Positions 44,896 to 64,000 of a DNA stretch of 64,000 bases are shown piece by piece (the stretch's first letter is position 1; the number at the start of each line of letters is the position of its first letter). The stretch is from Macrostomum lignano. Its lineage: Eukaryota. Where the stretch lies: positions 248,001 through 312,000 of the forward strand of contig NIVC01000728.1 in the NCBI GenBank assembly GCA_002269645.1. Direction: 5' to 3'. The position numbers and the translations under genes are program-made. Below the pieces are notes generated by a model. The model saw only the letters and a list, made by a program, of their open reading frames with translations. It did not search any database and was not told the origin of the DNA.

Positions 44896-45393
44896 TCGGT
44901 AGTTTAGTCGGTCGGTGAGTTGATAGAAAAGTAAGTAAGTAGGGGATAAAAAGAACGGTTTAAAAACAGGTCCCTATAAGAATTTAACTCTCTAAGAATC
45001 CCACTCATTCTATACGAGTACTTTTAATGAAAGATTTCTGAATATCACGAAGATAAAATCACCCTATGTACCTCATATAATTCTGCGTTACGTAATTTCC
45101 ACACTTTACGGCAGTCTCCGGCTATCTATTGGGAACCAGTCAGTAATTATCCCTAGACACTGGGCCACAGGTGGCTTCAGACCAACTTTACCGCGCTCAA
45201 AGAGGGCCACCACTTGTTCTGCTGCAAGTTTTGCGTCATTAATGCCCGAAGAGTGGCAGAATATGAACACGCAGGGAGTCTTTCGGGTAGGGGTGGAGTT
45301 GACGCAAAACTCCCTATTCAGGCGCAGATGGGTGAACGCTCTGTAACATTCACTTTCATCCCCCCCCCCCCCCTGCCGCCTGTGCCTTTGCAG

Positions 45394-45849
45394 TGCACCC
45401 CTGTCGGCCACCTGAGCCTGCTGTCTCCGGCAATGACGTCATCGGTGAAGGGCTCCGCCGGAACCGCCGCATCTGGAGGCGACTCGTCTGGCCGAAAGGA
45501 CGACCGCGTCAAGCGCCCAATGAACGCCTTCATGGTGTGGAGCCGGGGTCAGCGCCGGAAGATGGCCCAGGAGAACCCGAAGATGCACAACTCGGAAATC
45601 AGCAAGCGTCTCGGCGCCGAGTGGAAGAGTCTCAGCGAGACTGAGAAGCGCCCGTTCATTGATGAGGCCAAGCGACTGCGCGCCATCCACATGAAGGACC
45701 ACCCGGACTATAAGTACCGGCCGAGGCGCAAGACGAAGACCCTGCTGAAGCGGCAGGATCGCTATACGGCTGCGGCCCCTGGAGCAGCCGTTGCCCAGCC
45801 TCTGCCTAGGGAATTGTACAGCACCCAGCCGTACATGCCTCATCACCAG

Positions 45850-45917
<68 letters not shown>

Positions 45918-46350
45918 GCAGCAACAGCAACCGCAGCAGTACCATCATCACCATCATCACCTGGGCAGCATGGATCCGACTGCGGCCTACCATCATCATC
46001 ACCAGCAGCAGCAGCAGCAGGCAGCCTCCAACATGATGAACATGTCGCACTATGGCAGCTACCTGCCGCACCTGCCAGCCGCCTACGCCGCCTACGCAGC
46101 TCCAGGCATGTCAGGAATGGTTGGCGGCCCCGGCTACATGACAGCCGCCGCCGCCGCGGCCTCCTCCTACATGCTCAAACAGGAGACTGGCAGCGCCGGC
46201 AGTCCAGCAGGCAGCATCGGTGGCGGCGGCGGTGGCAGCCAGTCGCCGACCCCGCTGGTTCAGGCAGGATTCGCCGAGCACCTGTGCATGCAGTACATGC
46301 AGAATGGTCAGAGCAGTCCCGACAATCTGCCCACCATCGGCAGCATATGA
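45394..46350 (+). CDS. SoxB1: SoxB1-type HMG-box transcription factor, HMG exon
   Basis: [78 protein letters not shown] is near-identical to Sox1/2/3, including the group-B KTKT motif. Acceptor CCTTTGCAG|. Confidence 0.93.
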
Positions 46351-49899: not shown

Positions 49900-51663
49900 T
49901 CACTCGCAAGAGTTGCTCAGCGGCTCGACCAGCCGGATGACCACCAGGCCGTGCTGACTGGCGCTGCCGCCCGTGGTGCCGCTGCAGCCGCTGCCGGAGC
50001 AGAAGGAGCCGCCGCCGCCTCCTGGGTAGCTCGCCCAGAAGTTGGTGGCGCCTCCGCTGAAGCCGCCGCCGGCCCCGGCAGCGCCAAAGTTGGGGTTTGT
50101 CGTGCCGCCGCCTCCACCGCCGCCGAACCCGCCGTTGCCGGTGTTGGAGCCGCCAGCGTCCCCGCCCAGCCAGCCTTCAGCCCGACTGCCGCCTCCGTCA
50201 CCGTCGTCCGGTCCCCGCCTGGTGCACACCGGCTTCCCCAGCCAGCCGGCGCCGCAGCCAGCGAGGTTCTGGTTGCCGGTCATGGCGCTGGAGTCGTGGA
50301 AGCCCGGCTGTCCGTTGCTGCCGCCGTGGCTGTTTTGGTTTCCGCTCAGATCCGCGATGGAGCCGTTGACGCCGGCCTCTCCGGGCAGGCCTGCAAATTC
50401 GTTGCTCATGGCTCACCTTCAATAAATCCAATATAACCGGCCAACAAAAACAAATAAAATTTGAGCAGCCCAATTTGGTAAGTTCAAGTTTTTTGCCACA
50501 TGGAATCGAACTGATTTCGTGTTCGGACCTGATGTCAACTCTATCGAAAATTGACATCAACTGCAAACCAGGCACAAGAATAAGCTAAACACTTAAAAGT
50601 CGGAGAGCTTTTAGAAGATTTGCTTTCTGCAGTTTTTCCTGAAGAATTTTTGACTCACCAGCTGAGCTGTAGGTCCCGGCACCGCCGCCTCCGGCTGCAG
50701 CCAGCAGCAGCTCGTCTGCCGTCCGGTACACGAAGCTGCCGCCGCCTCCGCCGCCTCCCTTGTACTTCGAGCTAGGCGGACCGCCGGCCTGTCCGACCAC
50801 GACGCTCAGCTGGGTGCCGGCCGTCAGGTTGAAGGCGCCGGACACGAAGGCGCCACTGCCGCCAGCCTTGCCTGAGAAGGAGTTGGTGCCGCCTCTGGCG
50901 CCCGACACTTCGATCCAATAGCAGCCGGTCGAGGGGATCGTCACGGACTGAATGGAGCCGGCCCTACCCGTGCCGCTGTCTGCAGTGAAAGAAGGCGCTG
51001 CAGATCAGATGTCAAGGTGCAGCAAATGCTTGAAGCACAGAAACTTTGCAAACATGAGCTTTTCCTCACTTTTGAGCTCAATGGTGACGTTCAGCATCCT
51101 CTTCCTCATCAGCATCAGCTCCGTGAAGTTCTCGGCCGCCCACAGCCTGGCGCCGGGCTCGGAGCCCACGAGTCTCTGCTCGTGAGTCCCAGCCGGTCCC
51201 GGCGCCTGAGACGCGTCGTTCAGCAGCAGCAGCTGGCAGACGCGCGAGCTGGGAATGAGCGAAGCCAGCAGGCAGCCCTTGCGTTGGCAAGCTGCCAGAC
51301 ACTCCAGCCGGGCCTGGACGCCAGTCAGGTTGACGAGTTCGCTGCTGGAGGTTTCGCTGATCAGGACGGGTCCGGTGACGGCAGTGAAGCAGCCGGATCG
51401 GTTCGCACCTGTTGGTTGGAGGAGATTCTGTGCATTGAAAACTGTGGCTGCGCCATCACAGCAGTTTACAAAGGTGGTTGACAACTCTAAAAATTTTCAA
51501 TTCTTGATGTTTTGTAGGTTTAGAAATCTATTCAGATTTAGTTAAATAGAGACTACGTTACGCATTCGCAGGCGCTCAGTGCATTTGACAAACATGCATG
51601 AGAAGCCTCACCTGTCACGGTAGCCATGCAGCCGAACAGCAGCGCTAGAATTCCAGCTGGCAT
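49900..51663 (-). CDS. Secreted PAN/apple-like + ALK/LTK-type glycine-rich-domain protein; exons 51663-51612, 51408-51070, 50997-50659, 50390-49900 (406 aa)
   Basis: All three introns are GT-AG and phase 1; total 1221 nt in frame. Signal-peptide-like MPAGILALLFGCMATVTG. Cys module ECLAACQRKGC...RVCQL. ALK-like IQSVTIPSTGCYWIEVSGARGG, GGGGGGSFV, LLLAAAGGGG, GGFGGGGGG, GAGGGFSGG, GGGGGSF, HGLVVI. Confidence 0.85.
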
Positions 51664-51857
51664 TTCCAAATGTTTCGAATTTCTCCGCTTGTCTTCACCT
51701 GTGAAATCCTCAGCTTCTTCGGATGTTAATCTTAGGGAGCTCAGACTGCTCTGGGAGTTAAGCTTTCATGTTGAGACTGGGTTCATTTATTTGATATTTT
51801 TGTTTCCTTGGATACCGATAAGTGGCTGAGGATGGTTGGGCCATCTTCATTGGCTAG

Positions 51858-54058: not shown

Positions 54059-54135
54059 AGTAGTAGGGCGAATTATGATACTGCCGCACTAGCACTGGCG
54101 AGATAGGCGGCAATGCAAATGTATAGGGAAAAATA

Positions 54136-54860
54136 CACTGCGGAGATATGAGCCCTATCTCTGTGCATTGGGGACGGCTAAGCACTGCAGAGATATGAGC
54201 TCTATCTCTGTGCATTGGGGACGGCTAAGCACTGCAGAGATATGAGCTCTATCTCTGTGCATTGGGGACGGCTAAGCACTGCAGAGATATGAGCTCTATC
54301 TCTGTGCATTGGGGACGGCTAAGCACTGCAGAGATATGAGCTCTATCTCTGTGCATTGGGGACGGCTAAGCACTGCAGAGATATGAGCTCTATCTCTGTG
54401 CATTGGGGACGGCTAAGCACTGCAGAGATATGAGCTCTATCTCTGTGCATTGGGGACGGCTAAGCACTGCAGAGATATGAGCTCTATCTCTGTGCATTGG
54501 GGACGGCTAAGCACTGCAGAGATATGAGCTCTATCTCTGTGCATTGGGGACGGCTAAGCACTGCAGAGATATGAGCTCTATCTCTGTGCATTGGGGACGG
54601 CTAAGCACTGCAGAGATATGAGCTCTATCTCTGTGCATTGGGGACGGCTAAGCACTGCAGAGATATGAGCTCTATCTCTGCTTAACACTGAAGTGATAGG
54701 AGAAGAGGCGGCCTATCTCTTTACACTGGAGATGGTTAGCACTGCAGAGATAGGAGGAGAGGCGGCCTATCTCTTTACACTGGAGATGGTTAACACTGCA
54801 GAGATAGGAGGAGAGGCGGCCTATCTCTTTGCATTGGGGGTGGTTAACACTGCAGAGATA
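54136..54860. repeat. Subterminal array of palindromic 47-bp units (about 11) followed by about 51-bp variants
   Basis: GCACTGCAGAGATATGAGCTCTATCTCTGTGCATTGGGGACGGCTAA with internal inverted repeat CAGAGATA/TATCTCTG. Confidence 0.93.
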
Positions 54861-54900: not shown

Positions 54901-54962
54901 AGCCAATCACAGAGCCCGGAGTGGGATGAGTGGTTTGGGGTGGTTCGGTCGAGGGTATATAA
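54901..54962 (+). promoter_or_regulatory. Putative Pol II promoter of the first Polinton ORF (CCAAT + TATA)
   Basis: AGCCAATCAC at 54901 and TATATAAG at 54956, about 50 bp apart and about 110 bp upstream of the ATG at 55068. Confidence 0.55.
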
Positions 54963-55067
54963 GCCCCGAAATTGACAAGAAAGAATTCTCAATTTTTCAA
55001 ATCCAAAATTTCATCCGAACTTTTCCTCAGCTTTTAACTTTTGTGAGTTTTCAATTGCGAAAGGAAA

Positions 55068-55841
55068 ATGGACATCTGTGAAGGCTATAAGGCACAAGTC
55101 CAGGAGTTTGAAGGACAAAAATTTATCGCTATTCGCAAGTTTTACCGACACGGCAGCACGGCAAGTCTGAAGCCAGGCGTCCCAGGATTCAACCTGAATG
55201 TTCACCAATGGAAGAAATTGAAGGAGGTGAAACGCTCACTTGTGATTTCTGCACGCAACAACGAGCCCAAGGTCGTGAAACTCGGCTTCGATAAGTTTGT
55301 GGAAGTCAAAGGCGGCATCATTTGGCTCAAACGGCTGCCGGAAGATTGCTGCGAGGAGTTTTTGAGACGAAACGCCGTACCACTGACTCCGCCGCTGTGG
55401 CAGAAGCTCTGGAAAATCGCCTCCTGGATCGACGGTCAGCTGGTGGCTCCCTTGAGGAACTCAATGCAGTACGAGCTGGAGTCTGATGAGGAAGAGGAGG
55501 AAGAGGACAAGAAGCTCAAGTTGGAGGCTGACCAGGACACGAAGCCCATAATGGAGACTGATGAGGGCGGAGAGCATGCTGATGACGAGGACGTTAGCTC
55601 GCCCACAAGGCCGCGCATTGTGACTGAGCCTATCACATCCACACCGATACCTTTGGTTGATTCTGATGCTGGACTGCTTCCGCAGCGGGACACCAACCTT
55701 GAGGAAGATCCGGTGTGGTATCAGTTCAGGGCGCATGCAGCGGCTTCGACGGTGAGCAGCAGCAGCAGGAAGCGAAAGCTGCCATTTCAACTTCGTCGGC
55801 AGGACGCGATGAGGCTGCCCAATGTTCGCTTTGATAACTGA
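55068..55841 (+). CDS. Tandem PC4 (p15 coactivator / ssDNA-binding)-like protein with acidic tail
   Basis: AQVQEFEGQKFIAIRKFY...KPGVPGFNLNVHQWKKLKE matches PC4 (VSVRDFKGKVLIDIREYW...KPGRKGISLNPEQW.QLKE). A second degenerate copy reads LGFDKFVEV...LTPPLWQKL. Confidence 0.8.
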   Translation: MDICEGYKAQVQEFEGQKFIAIRKFYRHGSTASLKPGVPGFNLNVHQWKKLKEVKRSLVISARNNEPKVVKLGFDKFVEVKGGIIWLKRLPEDCCEEFLRRNAVPLTPPLWQKLWKIASWIDGQLVAPLRNSMQYELESDEEEEEEDKKLKLEADQDTKPIMETDEGGEHADDEDVSSPTRPRIVTEPITSTPIPLVDSDAGLLPQRDTNLEEDPVWYQFRAHAAASTVSSSSRKRKLPFQLRRQDAMRLPNVRFDN

Positions 55842-56168
55842 ACAGCTAGAATGCTTTGAATGCATTGGACTAACTAAATTACTTTTAGCTTGCACATGAT
55901 TATCCAGCCTATATCTGACGGCACTATGCTGTTTTTTATCTCTGCTATTTCTGAAATGCTGGTGTGCGAGTGTTTTAGTGTTCGTTTTTATGGATTGTTT
56001 GCTTTCGGAAAATACACCGACTGTTACGATGTTAGAGGTTTCAATCTGACAGTAATAAATTAATTTGCCACTCGTTTCTCTATCATTTAATTGGAATATA
56101 AATTTCTACTTAAGAAAAAAATACTGTACAGCTAGAGCAGGTGGATAGGCACGTATCTTGATAAACCC

Positions 56169-57239
56169 ATGATGGAGAAAATTTATTTGAAACCTGAGCA
56201 ACCGGCTAGTTTTTCTTGTGCCTCAAAGTTGCTGCATGAAGTGAGGCAAAGAGGTGATCGAATATCTGCAAAGAGCATTGAGCAGTGGCTCAGCGAGCAG
56301 CCAGTGCACACTCTGCACAAGCCAGCTAGGAGGCGATATCCAAGGGCCCCAATCATAGTGCGCGCAATCGATGATCAGTGGGAACTTGACTTAGTGGAAA
56401 TGATTCCATTTGCAAAGCATAATAAAGGCTACAAATATATTCTCACATGCATTGACGTGCTCTCAAAATGTGCTTGGGCCAAGGCACTGAAAAATAAATC
56501 TGCTGCAGAAGTGAAGTCAGCATTCGAGAGCATACTGAGAAGTTCAAAGCGACAGCCGCGCACAGTTCGCACAGATCAGGGGAAGGAATTTATCAACTCC
56601 ACTTTCCGTCAATACTGCATTGACAGAGGGATTCTGGCTTTCCCAACTAACAGCGAGCAGAAGGCGGCTGTCATTGAGCGATGGAATCGGACTCTGAAAA
56701 GTAGAATGTGGCGCTACTTCACCTACAAGAGCACACTGCACTGGCTTGATGTGCTGCCTAAGCTGGTAAAATCCTACAACAATACCTACCACAGAAGCAT
56801 CAAAATGGCACCCACTAGTGTCTGCAAAGAGAATGAATCTGAAGTGTGGATGAACCTGTACGACGGAAAAGCAGTCGAGACTCTAGAAAAATTAAGGAAG
56901 CCTAAATTCGCTGAAAACCAGTCAGTGAGAATTTCCAATGCTCCACGGCTATTCAAAAAGGGATACAAAGCGAGCTGGAGTGAGGAAGTGTACACCGTGG
57001 TGAGCAGAGCCCCAAAACATTATCCCTACATGTACAAGATTAAAGACATGCGGGGGCAAGAGATTCGAGGACTCTTCCATGAGCACGAGCTGCAGGCTGT
57101 CCCGGACTCACAGCGGCTGTATGTGATTGAGAAGATCCTGAAAACGGAGAAGCGGAAGGGAAAAATTCGCTATCTGGTGAAATGAGCGGGCTACGACTCG
57201 ACTGGCTGGGTGGATGAAAAAGACTTAAGAAAGGTTTAG
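56169..57239 (+). CDS. Retroviral-type (DDE) integrase with C-terminal chromodomain; in-frame TGA at 57183
   Basis: DDQWELDLVEM, YILTCIDVLSK.AWA, RTDQGKEF, KAAVIERWNRTLK, YNNTYHRSIKMAP, KGY...WSEE. Chromo-like YVIEKILK...YLVK*AGYD...WV. Confidence 0.92.
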
Positions 57240-57276: not shown

Positions 57277-58086
57277 ATGCGAACTATTTTGATTAACAGT
57301 GAGCATGCTGAAGGTACTCCTAGTGACTTTAATTTTTACCTGCCTTCACCTATTTACTTGGATCGAAATGTGGACTATGAGGCAGGTCTGGCTGAAATCC
57401 ATCTGCCTGCTGCATGGTTCAATGTTGACGAGCCTTACTGCTTCACTGTCTCAGATGGAAGAGAGCATGAGGCCCTGGTTCTTCAACCCGGACGCTTTGC
57501 TAGAGTGGAGGAGCTGGTGGAGCGCCTGAATGAGCTGCTGGCCAACTCTGATTCGCTGTTCTTTGATGCAATGAGTGACAGGGAGTCTGAGATGGAGGCT
57601 GATGAGTCCGGCCTGATGGGGCGTAGTGGCAACAGGGAATTCGGTATGAAGTTCGAAATCCACAACTCACGAACTGTGGTGCACAACAACACTGCGAGAG
57701 CAGAGCTGTTTCTTCCATCTAGTAAAATTCTGCATTGGCTGGGATTTGGAAACCAGGCTGTGAAAATCCAGCCAGGGAGCCGCGTGTCCGAGCATTGCAT
57801 TGGCTGCCCGCGCACCAGCTTAATCAATGTGCACTGCAGTATCGTTGAGTCAACTAATTGCAACTGGAGCTCCTTGTTGAGAACAGTTGGAATGAAAGCC
57901 GGCATTGAATGGGGCAACTATCAAACAAAAATATTTAAGAAAACAATATTCTTCCCGATTCAACGAATCAGTCTTCTTCACAGCATTCGAGTTCAGCTCC
58001 GTGACATCTATGGTTGCCCACTGATTGCACAGACTCACAGCCCTGTTCTGCTTACAGTTCAAATTCAGGAGAAACGCATTCAATGA
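57277..58086 (+). CDS. Polinton minor capsid (penton-like) protein
   Basis: N-terminal SDFNFYLPSPIYL...YEAGLAEIHLPAAWFNV and C-terminal INVHCSIVE...LLRTV...FFPI...SIRVQLRD..G are typical of the family. Confidence 0.8.
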   Translation: MRTILINSEHAEGTPSDFNFYLPSPIYLDRNVDYEAGLAEIHLPAAWFNVDEPYCFTVSDGREHEALVLQPGRFARVEELVERLNELLANSDSLFFDAMSDRESEMEADESGLMGRSGNREFGMKFEIHNSRTVVHNNTARAELFLPSSKILHWLGFGNQAVKIQPGSRVSEHCIGCPRTSLINVHCSIVESTNCNWSSLLRTVGMKAGIEWGNYQTKIFKKTIFFPIQRISLLHSIRVQLRDIYGCPLIAQTHSPVLLTVQIQEKRIQ

Positions 58087-58460
58087 ACTACCAGCAGCTA
58101 ATCCAGCAATATTCGGGGGTGAGGACAGGACACGAAAAGCCTGCACTCTATGGCTGTGGGAGCTTCCCAGGGATCATGACATACCAGCCTCCGCCAGCGG
58201 CTATATCATCATCATCAGCCTCGACGCTTAGCAACGTCAGGCGCAAAAGAAATACTGAAGCAAGTCCGAAACGATTGAAGAAAAAGAAGGGCACCCGAAA
58301 GGCAACTGGTGGAAATCGCAGTAAGAGGTCGAGCAAGGCTAGTGGGAAAAAGCTTAAGAATAGGAAGACGAAAGCAAAGAAGAATAGAGCAGGCGGAGGA
58401 AAGCGAAAGCAAAAAGTCAGCAAGAAAACTGTGAAACGCGTGCTCGACTCTCTGTCATAG
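58083..58460 (+). CDS. Small Lys/Arg-rich putative core (DNA-condensing) protein
   Basis: Its ATG overlaps the penton stop (ATGA). Very basic C-terminal two-thirds; lies between the minor and major capsid genes. Confidence 0.6.
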   Translation: MNYQQLIQQYSGVRTGHEKPALYGCGSFPGIMTYQPPPAAISSSSASTLSNVRRKRNTEASPKRLKKKKGTRKATGGNRSKRSSKASGKKLKNRKTKAKKNRAGGGKRKQKVSKKTVKRVLDSLS

Positions 58461-58462
58461 AC

Positions 58463-59745
58463 ATGGCTTACGGATTCAATCCCAGACTTGATTTATTTAA
58501 GACGCCCGTTCTACAAACCTGCATTGAAAAAGCTACTTATGTTGATATTCACCCAGTTAATTCCATTGTTGCAAACTCTCCCATTGAATTTGACTGCCAC
58601 CAATCTGCCGATGAATACACAGATCTGCTGAATTCTTTTCTTTATATTCGCTGCCGCCTTGTGAGACTGGATGGGGGTTTGCTGAGGGAGGATGTTCGAG
58701 ATGGAGATGGCATCATCACCGAGCGCAGAGACAGTGACGTGCACCCAGAAAATTTTGTTCTGTCTACAGCCTTCTCAGATGTAATTGTGAGCATTAACCA
58801 GCGAGTGGTGTCTGGTGGAGACCAGCTCTATCCCTACCATGCGTACTTCAAAGCACTAATGAGCTCATCCGATGCCCAGCAACTAAAACTTTACCCTGCT
58901 GGCTTCCTGGAGCCGAACTCGGCAGCTGAAGAGCACACGGAGAGCCACAGGGAATCCCAATGGATGGAGTATGCGGGGCCGCTCTTCAGCGATGTTTTCC
59001 AGTGCCCAGTGTTTCTGCTAAGCAATCTGCACCTGCACATCAAACTGGTCCCCAGCGATGGGGCCTTTGCCATCAGAACCCCGAATGCAAACAACGCGGC
59101 ATACCGAATGGAAATCTCTCACAGCATTCTGCATCTTCGCCGAGTCAAAGTGATGCCCCACATCAGCCTGGCCCACGAGCAGGGGTGACAAACCAAAATG
59201 CACTGTATCCCATCGAGCGAACTGAAATGCAGAACTTCATCCTACCCCAGGGTATTCAGTCAAAAAACATTGAAGGATTCACTCATGGAAAATTGCCGAA
59301 GTTTATCATGCTGGCCTTCGTGAGCCACCGAGCATTCAACGGTCATCATCACGCGAGCCCGTTCCAGTTCCAGAGCTTCAACCTTAGCCGATTGGCTCTA
59401 AAGAAAGGTGGGGAAACCGTGTGCCACGGCGCCTTCACACCTGAAAACAATTCCTTTGTAAGAGAATACTTGCACTACCTGAAAAGCTGTCAATCTGCAA
59501 GCCACACAAACTCGGTTCCGTGGATCCCCTACCAGCTCTTCTCCAACAACAGCACGGTGTTTGCATTCGATCTCACACCCGAGGGAGCGGCTCTGTGGTA
59601 CGGACAGAAGGAGGGCAACCTGCGGCTGGAGATTCGCTTCCAACAGGCTCTGAATGAAGCGGTGTCCCTGATTGCTATGTGCCTGTATGACTCGCTGATT
59701 GAGGTCACCAAGCACCGAGAGCTTTTGCTGGACTATTCATCTTAA
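58463..59745 (+). CDS. Polinton major capsid protein (double jelly-roll), one -1 frameshift at 59182-59185
   Basis: LDLFKTPVLQTCIE...YVDIHPV...PIEF...EYTDL..S.LY; YPYHAYFKAL; L.SDVFQC..FLL; adding one G joins it to ALYPIERTEM..F..P.G...LPK..MLAFV...AFNG.....PF.FQ.F; FAFDLTP; GNLRLEIRF...L. Confidence 0.9.
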
Positions 59746-59750
59746 TTGAC

Positions 59751-60263
59751 ATGGATGCAATTCAACTACTTAATCTCGCCAGAAAATTTTTGCCTTACCA
59801 AAAATTTCTCATAGTTACTTTACATTTGCGCTATAAAAATTCTCTGCCCTTGAATGTAAAAAGAAAATTTAGATCATCAATTTCCTTTGAAAACAAGTTT
59901 GTTTTTGTCCTACTTCAGCACAATGGCTCATTTGGTCACTGGGTGGTGTGCTATGTTGGGCAAGGAAATCGCATTGAGTTGTTCAACTCCCTCGGCTGGG
60001 AACCTGAAATTTTATCTTTGGTTTATAATTTGTTTCGAGAGATTAAAACAACTGGCTTTTGGCTCCGAAGCAATATAAACAGAGTTCAATGTGCTAACTC
60101 TAATAAATGCGGAGTGTTTTGCATCTATTTTGCTTATCAAAAGTTTCTGTTCAATCGGTCATTTGAGGGGATTTTGAAGCATTTGCATGCTAATGAAAAA
60201 AATCATTTGAATGATAGAATCTTACAGAGGTTTGAAGCCAACTTAAGAAAAAGATGTCCGTGA
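59751..60263 (+). CDS. Adenain-like cysteine maturation protease
   Basis: Catalytic pattern GHWV...ELFNSLG...RVQ...SNKCGVFCIYF. Confidence 0.88.
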   Translation: MDAIQLLNLARKFLPYQKFLIVTLHLRYKNSLPLNVKRKFRSSISFENKFVFVLLQHNGSFGHWVVCYVGQGNRIELFNSLGWEPEILSLVYNLFREIKTTGFWLRSNINRVQCANSNKCGVFCIYFAYQKFLFNRSFEGILKHLHANEKNHLNDRILQRFEANLRKRCP

Positions 60264-61026
60264 TTTCTAATATTTATGCATTAAACATGGGAGAAAAGCA
60301 AGTTTGCTACGATATCCGCCTCAGGCAGGGAAGCTGCATGATTGTCTGCGGGCCCACCAATGCAGGAAAAACAACCTTTGTCAAACACCTGATCCAGTAC
60401 AGAGACGTCATGTTTGATGTGAAGCCTGGCAGAGTTCTGTGGTACTATGGGATCTCACAGGCAGGCCATGCAGAACTGAGCAGCCTAGGTGTGCAGCTGC
60501 GCCAGGGATTTCCCACCAACATCGAGGCAGCACTTAGGCCCAATGACCTGGTTGTTTTCGATGACTTAATAGAGGAAACTTCAAACTCTGCTTCAATGCG
60601 AAATTTTTTCACAGGAATCGCACATCACTTGCCGTGCTTTTGGTGATGCTGACTCAGAATATATTTTTCAAGGGAAAAGAGTCGCGAACAATGAGCTTGA
60701 ATGTAATGTATTTAGCTATCTTGAAAAACCCCAGAGACCAGCTGCAGATTGCAGCACTGGGCAGGCAGTGCTTTACAGAGAAGCCCGGCTTTCTGCTGTC
60801 AGTGTTCAAGCACGTGACCGCGCAGGGCAGGGGAGCTTACCTGTTCCTGGATTTTCACCCATCAACTCCCGATGAGCTGCGAGTGCGGGCCAGAATTTTG
60901 CCCAACCAGCGACCCCATCTTGTATTTGAAAGTGAAAGTGAAGCTTGTTTTTATCAGCTATTGTTTTCATCGCTATGGAAGTGCTTGATTCACATGCAAG
61001 TTTTTTGCGGTTCTTGCGTCACCTAA
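60254..61026 (+). CDS. A32/FtsK-like packaging ATPase, one -1 frameshift at 60638-60641
   Basis: Walker A GPTNAGKT, Walker B LVVFDDL, then FT..AHH; adding one T continues into ..LTQN.F......RTMSLN..Y..I.KNPRD..QI..LGRQ. Confidence 0.92.
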
Positions 61027-61897: not shown

Positions 61898-61997
61898 TCA
61901 AGGGGTACGGGAGCAACACAGCCTGGCTGAAACTGCCTGCCAGAAAAGTATATAAGAAGGTGGACTGACTCCGAAATTTTCGAAGGAAAGCTGCATC

Positions 61998-62480
61998 ATG
62001 AACTACATTGACTTCCAAGGATTCCGTGCAACAGCACAAGCAAAAAATTTGTTGTGAAGGAGTTGGCAGTTGTTCAAATCAGAGCGGGGAGCTACCGCAT
62101 TGCTCACCATGTGTACGCACCTCCGTATCCATGGGAGAGAGTCTCACCTGACATGCGAGTTTACTACAGACAGCTATCTAAGAGTCTGCACCAGTTTAAG
62201 TGGAATGATGGAACCCGTCCGTACATGGAACTGGCGGAAGACATTCTGAGCATTGCCAGTGGTCCGATCTGGTCAAATGGGGAAAGGAAGTCGATTTTTC
62301 TGACTGAGCTGCTTGGAAGACAGGTTTATAACCTAGAAGATTTGGGAGCACCCTCGACTGAAGATTCAGATACTGGCTGTGCAGTGAGAAATTCGTTGCT
62401 GCACTACAGTTGGCTTAAGCCAAAGTTCTGCATCAACTTAAGAAGCGAGCAGTGTCCGTGGCACACGAGCAGTAAAGTTG
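61998..62480 (+). CDS. DnaQ/DEDD-like 3'-5' exonuclease homologue, -1 frameshift at 62042-62047; C-terminus uncertain
   Basis: YIDFQGF...(+1 A)KKFVVKELAV, YAPPYPW, HQFKWNDG..PY, K..FL..LLG..V.NLEDLGAP. Confidence 0.65.
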
Positions 62481-63089
62481 GCAGAAGCAGATTTGGTGAA
62501 GAAGTTGACGATCGAAATGAGCCCACCAGCTACAGCCCTAAGAGTGACCAATCTGGTTGGCGGAGTAGATCTGAGACTGGATGGTGGCAGGGGCGCTCAG
62601 CTGCCTCTACGGGAACTGGCTCTCAGCATGGCTCATGTGATCTACCGGCCCGTCTGGCCCCGGGTGCTCATCAAGCGGATGCGAAGTCCCAGAGTGACTC
62701 TGCTACTCTACCCTACTGGGCAACTGAGCATCTGCGGTGCCAAGACCCACGCAGACGCCAAAAGGGCTGCCCGTCGCTTCGTGGCTATGCTGCATCGGAG
62801 AGTGCCGGCTCAACTGCTGCCTCATCAAACAATTTGTGTTCGAATTAAAACTATTACTGCTCATGGACAGCTCCCAGTTCATTCCGCACTTTCCTTATTA
62901 ATGTTAAAATCAATTATCCCAAACGCCGAATATGAACCAGAATCCTTTTCTGCTTTAATTTTCAATTTAAACTTTTGTAAATGTCTGCTTTTTCACAGCG
63001 GCTCTTTTGTTCTCAGTAGAGCTCGGTCCTTGAATCAGTTGCATACCGATAGCATGCGTCTACTCAATGTAGTTCTTTCCATTGAATAA
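62478..63089 (+). CDS. TATA-binding protein (TBP) homologue encoded inside the Polinton
   Basis: Both TBP repeats align. Repeat 1: VTNLVGGVDL...LRELA....YRP.WPRVLIKRMRSPRVTLLLYPTGQLSICGAKT..DAKRAARRF. Repeat 2: YEPESFSALIF.L....CLLFHSGSFVLSRAR. Confidence 0.88.
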   Translation: MAEADLVKKLTIEMSPPATALRVTNLVGGVDLRLDGGRGAQLPLRELALSMAHVIYRPVWPRVLIKRMRSPRVTLLLYPTGQLSICGAKTHADAKRAARRFVAMLHRRVPAQLLPHQTICVRIKTITAHGQLPVHSALSLLMLKSIIPNAEYEPESFSALIFNLNFCKCLLFHSGSFVLSRARSLNQLHTDSMRLLNVVLSIE

Positions 63090-63670
63090 AAATAAAAGTC
63101 AAGTCAAGCAATTTGCCGCAAATATTTCAATGATTAGTGAAAAGTGAATAAAAGGATAAACTTAGTATTCTTTACATTCATTTTCCCAGGCAGACAGCTA
63201 TGGAACACTTCAAAAACGTATTTAGCCCATCACCAAAAGTATCGCAAAACGCATATCAAATCCGAAAGTAAACAATACTACCATCGTTATAACAAACGAT
63301 GTGCACCGAGAGAAGAGAAATAGAAAAGTGATAGAGAAAATATGATTAAAACGCTGATTGAATTTACAGGAACAATTTATGTCAGATAAAAACCAAAAAC
63401 ACATTTTAAACAAGTAGTACACAAAGCAAACAAAAATGAATTAATATTGTATGAGCGCACTTGCCACAGCTTTATAAAAAGTAAAACTTAAATTGATATC
63501 AATATTTCACGCCGCAAAAACAAATTGACAGCTAAATCTAGCGCAATTAGCCAAGCATACAAATTTGTAAAAGTTACTACATGCAAGTCACTACATTTAA
63601 AACAGAATTTGGCAATTTAAACAACTCTAAAAGCAAGAAAAAGTACTAAACAGTCTGTTAAACACCCGCA

Positions 63671-64000
63671 CTAGACCAGTCGGATGCGCTTCAGCTGATC
63701 GTGGGATGCGGGCGTCAGCGCATAGTGTCCGTAGGGCAGGCTTCGATTACTGCTAAGCCACACTCGCTTATCCTCCCACACCGATAGGCTTCTTTTCTCC
63801 ATGACCGACGTGAAGATTTCGTGTTTCTTGGAAACAATCGCTGTCATGGCAACCATCTGCTCTTGCTTGGACTCGAACGCGTCGACATAGTTCGCATGCG
63901 AAATTTGCTGTCTTACTACTGACTGCTTCACGCCTTTGGCAGTTTTCTTGATCTTTGCACTCGAATTCTCGGCAGGGAGAAACGAATAAAGTTTTGGACG
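63671..64000 (-). CDS. polB: Protein-primed family B DNA polymerase, C-terminus (continues off the right edge)
   Basis: Frame is open from 64000: RPKLYS...KKTAKGVK..VV...I.H..Y...I.S.KH.I.T...EKRSLS..EDKR....SLPYGH. Confidence 0.92.
   Translation of the reverse strand, partial: RPKLYSFLPAENSSAKIKKTAKGVKQSVVRQQISHANYVDAFESKQEQMVAMTAIVSKKHEIFTSVMEKRSLSVWEDKRVWLSSNRSLPYGHYALTPASHDQLKRIRLV

Follow-up and report, generated by a model that had tools for sequence, protein, structure and literature searches.

A Polinton of Macrostomum lignano carries a divergent TATA-binding protein and a candidate promoter box for its particle genes

Introduction

A Polinton (adintovirus) in the genome of the flatworm Macrostomum lignano carries a gene for a divergent TATA-binding protein (TBP), which raises the question of which promoters this protein would serve and with which RNA polymerase. 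Nucleocytoviricota with TBP-like factors have their own RNA polymerase. Unlike in Nucleocytoviricota, no RNA polymerase was detected by Pfam among the scanned open reading frames (ORFs) of the Polinton, in agreement with an earlier note on this DNA. The window analysed here is the whole stretch of 64,000 nucleotides from positions 248,001 to 312,000 of contig NIVC01000728.1 (assembly GCA_002269645.1). Most of the putative particle genes lie behind a shared non-standard TATA-like box, an arrangement which suggests that the viral TBP likely switches on late genes through RNA polymerase II (Pol II) of the host.

The TBP gene lies within a Polinton

The assignment of the TBP gene to a Polinton is borne out by its neighbours and by sister copies. 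The hallmark genes for the protein-primed DNA polymerase B (pPolB), rve integrase, cysteine protease, and packaging ATPase are present, the last recognised by weak P-loop matches only (Table 1). The right terminus is not visible in the window because the contig breaks off within the polymerase gene. In a sister copy of 99% identity, located on C530 and about 16.7 kb long, both termini are present as inverted repeats of about 340 bp, with a 6-bp target-site duplication; the TBP gene lies between them, inside the element as the earlier note had supposed. The capsid and ATPase genes and the upstream gene, which form single frames in other lineages, are broken in the window copy. The putative capsid ORFs have the sizes and places of double and single jelly-roll genes and zero Pfam matches, and the labels minor capsid, core, and major capsid are read from ORF size and place. 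The gene upstream of TBP we take to be exonuclease-like from a motif.

Table 1 Features of the element in the window (positions counted from the first letter of the window)
Feature	Position	Strand	Basis
Left terminus / terminal inverted repeat	54059..54400 (right limit approximate)	+	terminus found at 54059
Canonical TATA box before PC4-like gene, TATATAAG	54956..54963	+	putative early promoter
PC4-like gene, 257 aa	55068..55841	+	Pfam PF02229 5.4e-08
CTTAAGAA box before integrase, non-coding, 60 nt 5′ of ATG	56109..56116	+	motif scan
Retroviral-type integrase	56169..57185	+	Pfam rve 2.8e-13
CTTAAGAA box, 53 nt before putative minor capsid gene	57224..57231	+	motif scan
Putative minor capsid (penton) gene	57277..58086	+	label from position; no Pfam match
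TTTAAGAA box, 147 nt before basic (core-like) ORF	57934..57941	+	family B match at -138
Lysine-rich ORF, putative core protein	58083..58460	+	putative label
CTTAAGAA box, about 110 nt before putative major capsid gene	58353..58360	+	family B match at -105
Putative major capsid gene, two frames in window copy	58463..59745	+	putative label; no Pfam match
Adenovirus-type cysteine protease	59751..60263	+	Pfam Peptidase_C5 9.6e-05
CTTAAGAA box before ATPase, 12 nt to first Met, 45 nt to second	60242..60249	+	motif scan
Packaging-type P-loop ATPase, two frames in window copy	60254..61026	+	weak P-loop Pfam matches only
Composite TATATAAGAA (canonical TATA overlapping TAAGAA) before upstream gene	61949..61958	+	variants retained in family B and further lineages
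Upstream gene, broken near start in window copy	61998..62848	+	no Pfam match
CTTAAGAA box, 80 nt before TBP ATG	62437..62444	+	motif scan
Divergent TBP gene, two repeats, 190 aa	62517..63089	+	Pfam, PDB, alignment, model
Recombination seam, repeat 1 / body of repeat 2 (codons 117-120)	62865..62876	+	change-point in 7/9 pairwise comparisons
Two AATAAA polyadenylation-type signals at TBP stop	63085..63096	+	reading of the sequence
pPolB gene, 3′ end, convergent on TBP	63671..64000	-	100% match to end of sister ORF with Pfam DNA_pol_B_2 2.4e-12

A search of the M. lignano genome returned at least 152 matches to the TBP gene (150 of 232 candidates were scored). Its presence in sister copies is evident: 102 of the 150 matches listed are full-length and free of stop codons, 94 of them in family A (74–100% identity) and eight in family B (38–39%), the two TBP families being about 38% identical. 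The same upstream Polinton gene was found at all 29 TBP loci with mapped surroundings. The terminal genes of family B (L045, L057; C110 of G000) are swapped relative to family A, with the polymerase before the integrase, and in L045 and L057 the PC4-like gene follows TBP on the opposite strand. Another family-B copy contains an inserted fragment of an LTR-type integrase (L071, 2467-3643).

Several other features accompany the element. Just inside the left terminus, positions 54130-54860 hold an array of ~45-bp tandem repeats followed by degenerate units. The polymerase ORF of the sister copy L053 (4393-8052) includes an endonuclease VII-like stretch (PF02945, 1e-05), and an unassigned, repeat-rich ORF lies between it and the terminus. 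A host SoxB-type HMG-box gene (45328-46350) is located about 8 kb from the insertion, and a host minus-strand gene with a glycine-rich region occupies 49900-51750, with one intron-type joint at 51405-51609 in run X3.

The earlier note had combined TBP and the PC4-like gene into a virus-encoded transcription module. A PC4-like gene is indeed present in both families; it matches PC4 in the PDB (E 3e-05) in the first domain only, and the family-B homologue is 35% identical. The evidence for a module is co-occurrence alone, and against it stand the different places and promoter classes of the genes. The PC4-like product may be just a single-stranded-DNA-binding protein. By eye, the stretch at 55068-55460 seems to encode two PC4 repeats, of which only the first scores and the second is degenerate, with an acidic tail after them. 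Such a second repeat suggests a single-chain pseudo-dimer.

The viral TBP is predicted to form a saddle with a rewired DNA-facing sheet

The TBP frame is open from 62478 to 63089, as previously described. The product of 203 residues deduced from it has to be shortened, since 62478 is a TTG codon and the first ATG, at 62517, gives 190 residues. The shorter form is the likely protein because an in-frame stop lies immediately 5′ of the matching ATG at four sister-lineage loci (L040–L043). Splicing of TBP onto the upstream gene found no support, given the stop before the ATG at four loci and no joint listed in the reads. The database models P0006 and P0007, which are fused or truncated, have the appearance of frame-shifted copies.

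Alignment to both TBP repeats was confirmed by a match to PF00352 in two stretches (E 2.6e-24), which with 85.3 bits against a cut-off of 22.9 makes the protein a member of the TBP family. Its sequence matches in the PDB are archaeal and eukaryotic TBPs (E 2e-14 to 1e-10). A model predicted from the single sequence had a pLDDT of 40, and a model based on an alignment of 17 sequences (mean pLDDT 78.9) was used instead. The predicted structure has the saddle fold of solved TBPs, with TM-scores of 0.74–0.80 (about 0.78) at 22–28% identity. The TBP-like factors of Nucleocytoviricota also have a viral TBP fold (BFVD models from Heterosigma akashiwo virus and mimivirids), with 7–19% identity to the Polinton protein and TM-scores lower than those of cellular TBPs. 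Matches in the ESM Atlas were generic TBP clusters only, and the database record 99% identical to the window TBP is a Macrostomum lignano protein.

The second-repeat pair of intercalating phenylalanines (YEPESF, LLFHSG) and the first central asparagine (TNLV) are retained, and threonine replaces the second asparagine (KTIT), just as the earlier note had read them. Its reading of the first-repeat pair as replaced by other aromatics is correct for LLYPTG, where Tyr stands for Phe, and wrong for the first Phe. In a gap-free alignment to the host and archaeal TBPs, Pro48 falls on this Phe and Trp47 on the preceding Arg; family B has His in place of this Trp. An aromatic residue thus replaces just one of the two phenylalanines of the first repeat. 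In place of the four intercalating Phe and two central Asn of canonical TBP, the viral protein has two Phe, one Tyr, and one Pro, and one Asn and one Thr.

Further residues are given in yeast numbering, transferred through the host TBP; both the anchor and the list of 33 DNA-contact positions are assumed to be correct. Among 15 viral rows, 13 of the 33 DNA-facing positions are invariant, versus 17 of the 137 others (Fisher p 7e-4 with the assumed list). The invariant DNA-facing residues include some retained from TBP (Asn69, Val71, Thr112, Leu114, Phe190, and Phe207) and some that are new (Arg100, Tyr116, Cys124, Lys158, and Thr159). Phe99 aligns with Pro, Val122 and Thr124 are changed to Ser and Cys, and Pro191 is replaced by Ser or Thr in family A and by Asn in family B. 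An invariant Lys is located at 203 by register from Phe207 and at 201 in the MAFFT alignment. The DNA-facing sheet is conserved but rewired, a surface compatible with the altered TATA specificity proposed earlier. The window copy and its identical sisters carry a substitution at codon 168, a position elsewhere invariant on the DNA-facing sheet, and the window copy may therefore be impaired.

Positions 91, 93, and 95 of the N-terminal stirrup, which we take to be TFIIA contacts, are replaced in all 15 viral rows. Recruitment of TFIIA, suggested in the earlier note, is not supported by these residues. The loss of the TFIIA-side residues, together with Pro in place of a first-repeat Phe, means that DNA bending may be weak. 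As far as the residues themselves go, all 21 viral rows have an unchanged Glu-Pro-Glu in the C-terminal, acidic stirrup; this stirrup is the main TFIIB contact of TBP according to PMC10005294.

A sense-strand TAAGAA box precedes most putative particle genes

The earlier note had pointed to TATATAAG at 54956 as a target of the viral TBP. This sequence is a canonical TATA box before the PC4-like gene, and a canonical TATA is found there in all seven other family-A loci that include the region; in family B (L045, L057), the same TATA-containing sequence stands before PC4 and pPolB. A more likely target is the non-canonical box CTTAAGAA.

The box motif was found post hoc by reading upstream regions. 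CTTAAGAA is the top 8-mer of the element and occurs five times in the window, always on the sense strand and inside the element, where 0.16 occurrences are expected (the largest count in 300 resamplings was 3). For the window as a whole, a count of five is unremarkable, as 24 of 100 shuffles reach it. The shorter TAAGAA has a sense-to-antisense ratio of 8:0 in the window element, where a count of eight was also the maximum over 300 resamplings, and of 7:0 in another lineage. All eight in the window element lie 25–160 nt before one of ten gene starts (binomial p 5.6e-7, with the 25–160-nt range picked afterwards and a second Met counted as one start). TTAAGAA precedes the integrase in all eight family-A loci examined, in non-coding DNA with divergent flanks, and the ATPase box of L042 and L043 is 57–58 nt before the ATG. 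The distance from box to ATG ranges from ~33 to 158 nt, and several boxes are within coding DNA. The protease gene has no upstream box in either family. At 12 further loci, there are 55 sense versus 5 antisense matches, some of them far from any start; L123 was without an element, and L134 was left aside as degraded.

The box is also found in family B, where TAAGAA is the top 6-mer of the copy analysed, mostly as ATAAGAA, with a strand ratio of 7:0 (p 1.6e-4, uncorrected). It precedes the same genes there: integrase, minor capsid, core (at -138, compared with -147), major capsid (at -105, compared with -108), the ORF after the ATPase, and the upstream gene. The TBP gene of family B has CCAAT and a canonical TATAAAAG in place of the box. 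Read as a TATA element, the box is C1-T2-T3-A4-A5-G6 in family A and mostly C/T1-A2-T3-A4-A5-G6 in family B, and departs from TATA by the G at position 6, which the families have in common, and in family A also at positions 1–2.

In PMC1636458, TBP positions 100, 191, 194, 203, and 205 are named; the C-terminal repeat of TBP reads the 5′ half of the box, Pro191 enforces T at position 1, and residues 194, 203, and 205 set position 2. Wild-type TBP selected no G at positions 6–7, and cavities in it can accept G at position 6 (PMC1636458); in family B, TATAAGAA might therefore be legible to host TBP. The residue changes of the viral TBP appear to fall where TBP specificity is set, and the loss of Pro191 and the changes at 122 and 124 fit the box. 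The likely target of the viral TBP is the sense-strand TAAGAA box, CTTAAGAA here and mostly ATAAGAA in family B. What links protein and box is their co-occurrence in the sequence.

Selection, relatives, and recombination of the TBP gene

The possibility of neutral evolution raised by the earlier note was not borne out. The dN/dS values of all 55 pairs among 11 family-A copies are 0.15–0.44, none near 1, which indicates purifying selection; the pairs are non-independent and the gene is a mosaic, and the comparison of family A with family B is saturated. The host genome has its own TBP and a TRF2-like gene, which are 27% and 24% identical to the window TBP. A quick tree of 74 rows unites the 12 viral rows in a single clade (SH-aLRT 96), separate from the host TBP; the sister group of this clade is weakly placed, with a support of 82 and long branches. 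Close relatives outside the assembly were found in Logan, ENA, and JGI records only. A search of 1.84 billion representatives gave eight that score below 1e-30, one of which is a plant TBP model. The 38 loci of a metagenome scan included none with a Polinton gene, and all were closer to host TBP than to viral TBP where both matched; scans of viral contigs gave no match. Five short (170–190 aa), divergent TBPs (P0017, P0058, P0069, P0072, and P0075) group weakly with the viral clade and may be TBPs of other Polintons.

In four sequencing runs presumed to be RNA, all 30 bins of the element are covered, its non-coding parts and the two convergent genes among them; coverage of a host control stretch was patchy, with one intron-type joint. 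The coverage of the element was not used as evidence of expression because dozens of near-identical copies make DNA carry-over indistinguishable.

The upstream frame overlaps TBP repeat 1 in the -1 frame, by 109 codons in the window copy (62517-62848), 106–110 codons in 11 of 11 family-A loci, and 108–128 codons in four of five family-B loci; in L047 of family B, an insertion breaks the upstream part of the overlap. Random synonymous recoding keeps the -1 frame open with a probability of 0.002–0.016 per lineage, and by this measure the overlapping frame exceeds chance in both families. The overlap peptide is Ser/Gly-rich. Since the overlap would hinder reinitiation, a separate transcript is probably required for the TBP gene, which would fit the box or TATA just upstream.

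Among ten copies, the upstream gene and repeat 1 fall into three groups, and repeat 2 into nine haplotypes with 56–75% nucleotide identity. The three left-arm groups pair with the nine repeat-2 haplotypes, and the change-point is at codons 117–120, which argues that left and right arms recombine in frame at the repeat junction. At 62868, a contig from run X2 parts from the window sequence and continues as a different type of repeat 2, and the polymerase end downstream of TBP is divergent like repeat 2. Close copies differ little at synonymous sites of repeat 1, for which the overlap was considered as the cause and rejected; this low divergence tracks the upstream gene and is therefore explained by recombination.

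Proposed mechanism and alternative explanations

Based on the promoter boxes and the residues of the viral TBP, a sequence of events can be proposed. Host TBP would first open the canonical TATA promoters, which are those of PC4, the polymerase, the upstream gene with its composite box, and the TBP gene of family B. The viral TBP would then bind the TAAGAA box in place of host TBP, about 30 nt 5′ of the transcription start. Its intact acidic stirrup is predicted to recruit host TFIIB and Pol II, so that the integrase and particle genes would be turned on by the viral TBP. In family A, the box before the TBP gene would give positive feedback. We consider the chances about even that the protein is such a one-protein selector of late promoters that uses host TFIIB and Pol II, like the herpesvirus TATT system but smaller.

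The viral TBP could instead be a decoy or dominant-negative factor, which sequesters TFIIB or regulators of TBP or sits on promoters of the host, with the boxes read by host TBP as weak TATA variants. This would agree with an invariant stirrup in a protein that has lost one intercalating Phe, one central Asn, and the TFIIA side, and with the nine divergent repeat-2 haplotypes among ten copies, as a host-facing surface might show; TRF2 loses TATA binding with the loss of a Phe (PMC10005294). A pure decoy, however, needs no DNA-facing sheet fixed at new residues and leaves the family-specific departure of the box from TATA unexplained. The repeat-2 diversity is synonymous-saturated with dN/dS of about 0.1–0.4, and therefore reflects old divergence rather than evident positive selection. 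We regard the decoy as unlikely. A role in DNA architecture is less probable still: the protein would serve replication, packaging, or the targeting of integration by binding to the box or to A/T-rich sites (or act with TFIIIB), rather than Pol II initiation. The conserved DNA face and the neighbouring integrase, polymerase, and PC4-like protein are in keeping with such a role, but the boxes are strand-specific and stand before gene starts, and the TFIIB stirrup is kept.

It is very unlikely that the element depends on a helper virus whose RNA polymerase would use the TAAG core as a baculovirus-type late initiator, leaving TBP with another job. The box does contain (A/T/G)TAAG, the baculovirus late motif (PMC13483298), yet conservation extends to the extra AA and to the family-specific prefix, the spacing of ~40–80 nt for most genes fits a -30 element, and the element itself carries TBP. 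A search of the host genome for LEF-8, run without a positive control, gave no match. A captured host gene that drifts as a passenger would account only for the lost canonical residues and is hardly credible, given dN/dS well below 1, the retention of the gene in two families of 38% identity and also in relatives found in other samples, and a separate clade at 24–27% identity to the host TRF2-like protein and TBP.

Comparison with known systems and implications

The closest likeness to the proposed late-promoter selector is offered by the vTBP of beta- and gammaherpesviruses (KSHV ORF24, EBV BcRF1), which acts at TATT late promoters (PMC7498053). The two would share a viral TBP fold, a rewired DNA face, a non-canonical TATA-like box on late genes (with late timing presumed for the Polinton), and the use of host Pol II. 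KSHV ORF24 is a large, multi-domain protein of a six-protein complex and binds the Pol II CTD directly, whereas the Polinton TBP is a bare 190-residue saddle without an extra Pol II-binding domain. In 10.1101/2025.08.25.672222, ORF24 is described as lacking the acidic TFIIB residues, with a predicted clash with TFIIB; in the Polinton TBP, these residues are not lost and the stirrup is invariant. Unlike herpesvirus vTBP, the Polinton TBP was found by plain sequence search; the function of the former was shown by experiment, and that of the latter is predicted.

Cellular TBP and TRF2 share with the Polinton TBP the two-repeat saddle, the first Asn, both second-repeat Phe, and the Glu-Pro-Glu stirrup. 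They differ from it in overall sequence (~25% identity) and at the positions where the viral protein has Pro and Tyr for the first two Phe, Thr for the second Asn, and a replaced Pro191. Compared with cellular TBP, the Polinton protein has also lost the TFIIA-side residues, has no N-terminal extension, and belongs to a multicopy mobile element. A TBP-like gene appears in the legend to Fig. 5 of Starrett et al. 2021 (PMC8502044) for a Polinton-related (MELD) virus with an adintovirus-like PolB. In the accessible text, this is a legend label only, without mechanism, promoter, or selection analysis, and Macrostomum and PC4 are unmentioned in the main text and one supplement. The open-access literature yielded no description of a Polinton TBP with a promoter box.

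We speculate, more tentatively than for the late-promoter selector itself, that the element has the smallest known viral promoter code. This doubtful extension would consist of a 190-residue TBP working within host TFIIB and Pol II, a private box, family-specific prefixes matched to repeat-2 residues, and a seam that reshuffles the 5′-reading, TFIIB-binding half together with the polymerase arm. Animal Polintons would in that case have an early-to-late cascade that is autonomous, without a need for a helper virus.

If the proposed mechanism is true, the viral TBP would be a naturally occurring TBP of altered specificity with the TFIIB route retained, opposite to the herpesvirus solution, and could offer an orthogonal promoter system for Pol II. 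The finding bears on how animal Polintons time the expression of their capsid genes and on their need for a helper. With a TBP encoded by the element itself and a box to match, this question can be approached in a laboratory flatworm through an 8-bp site and a single small protein.
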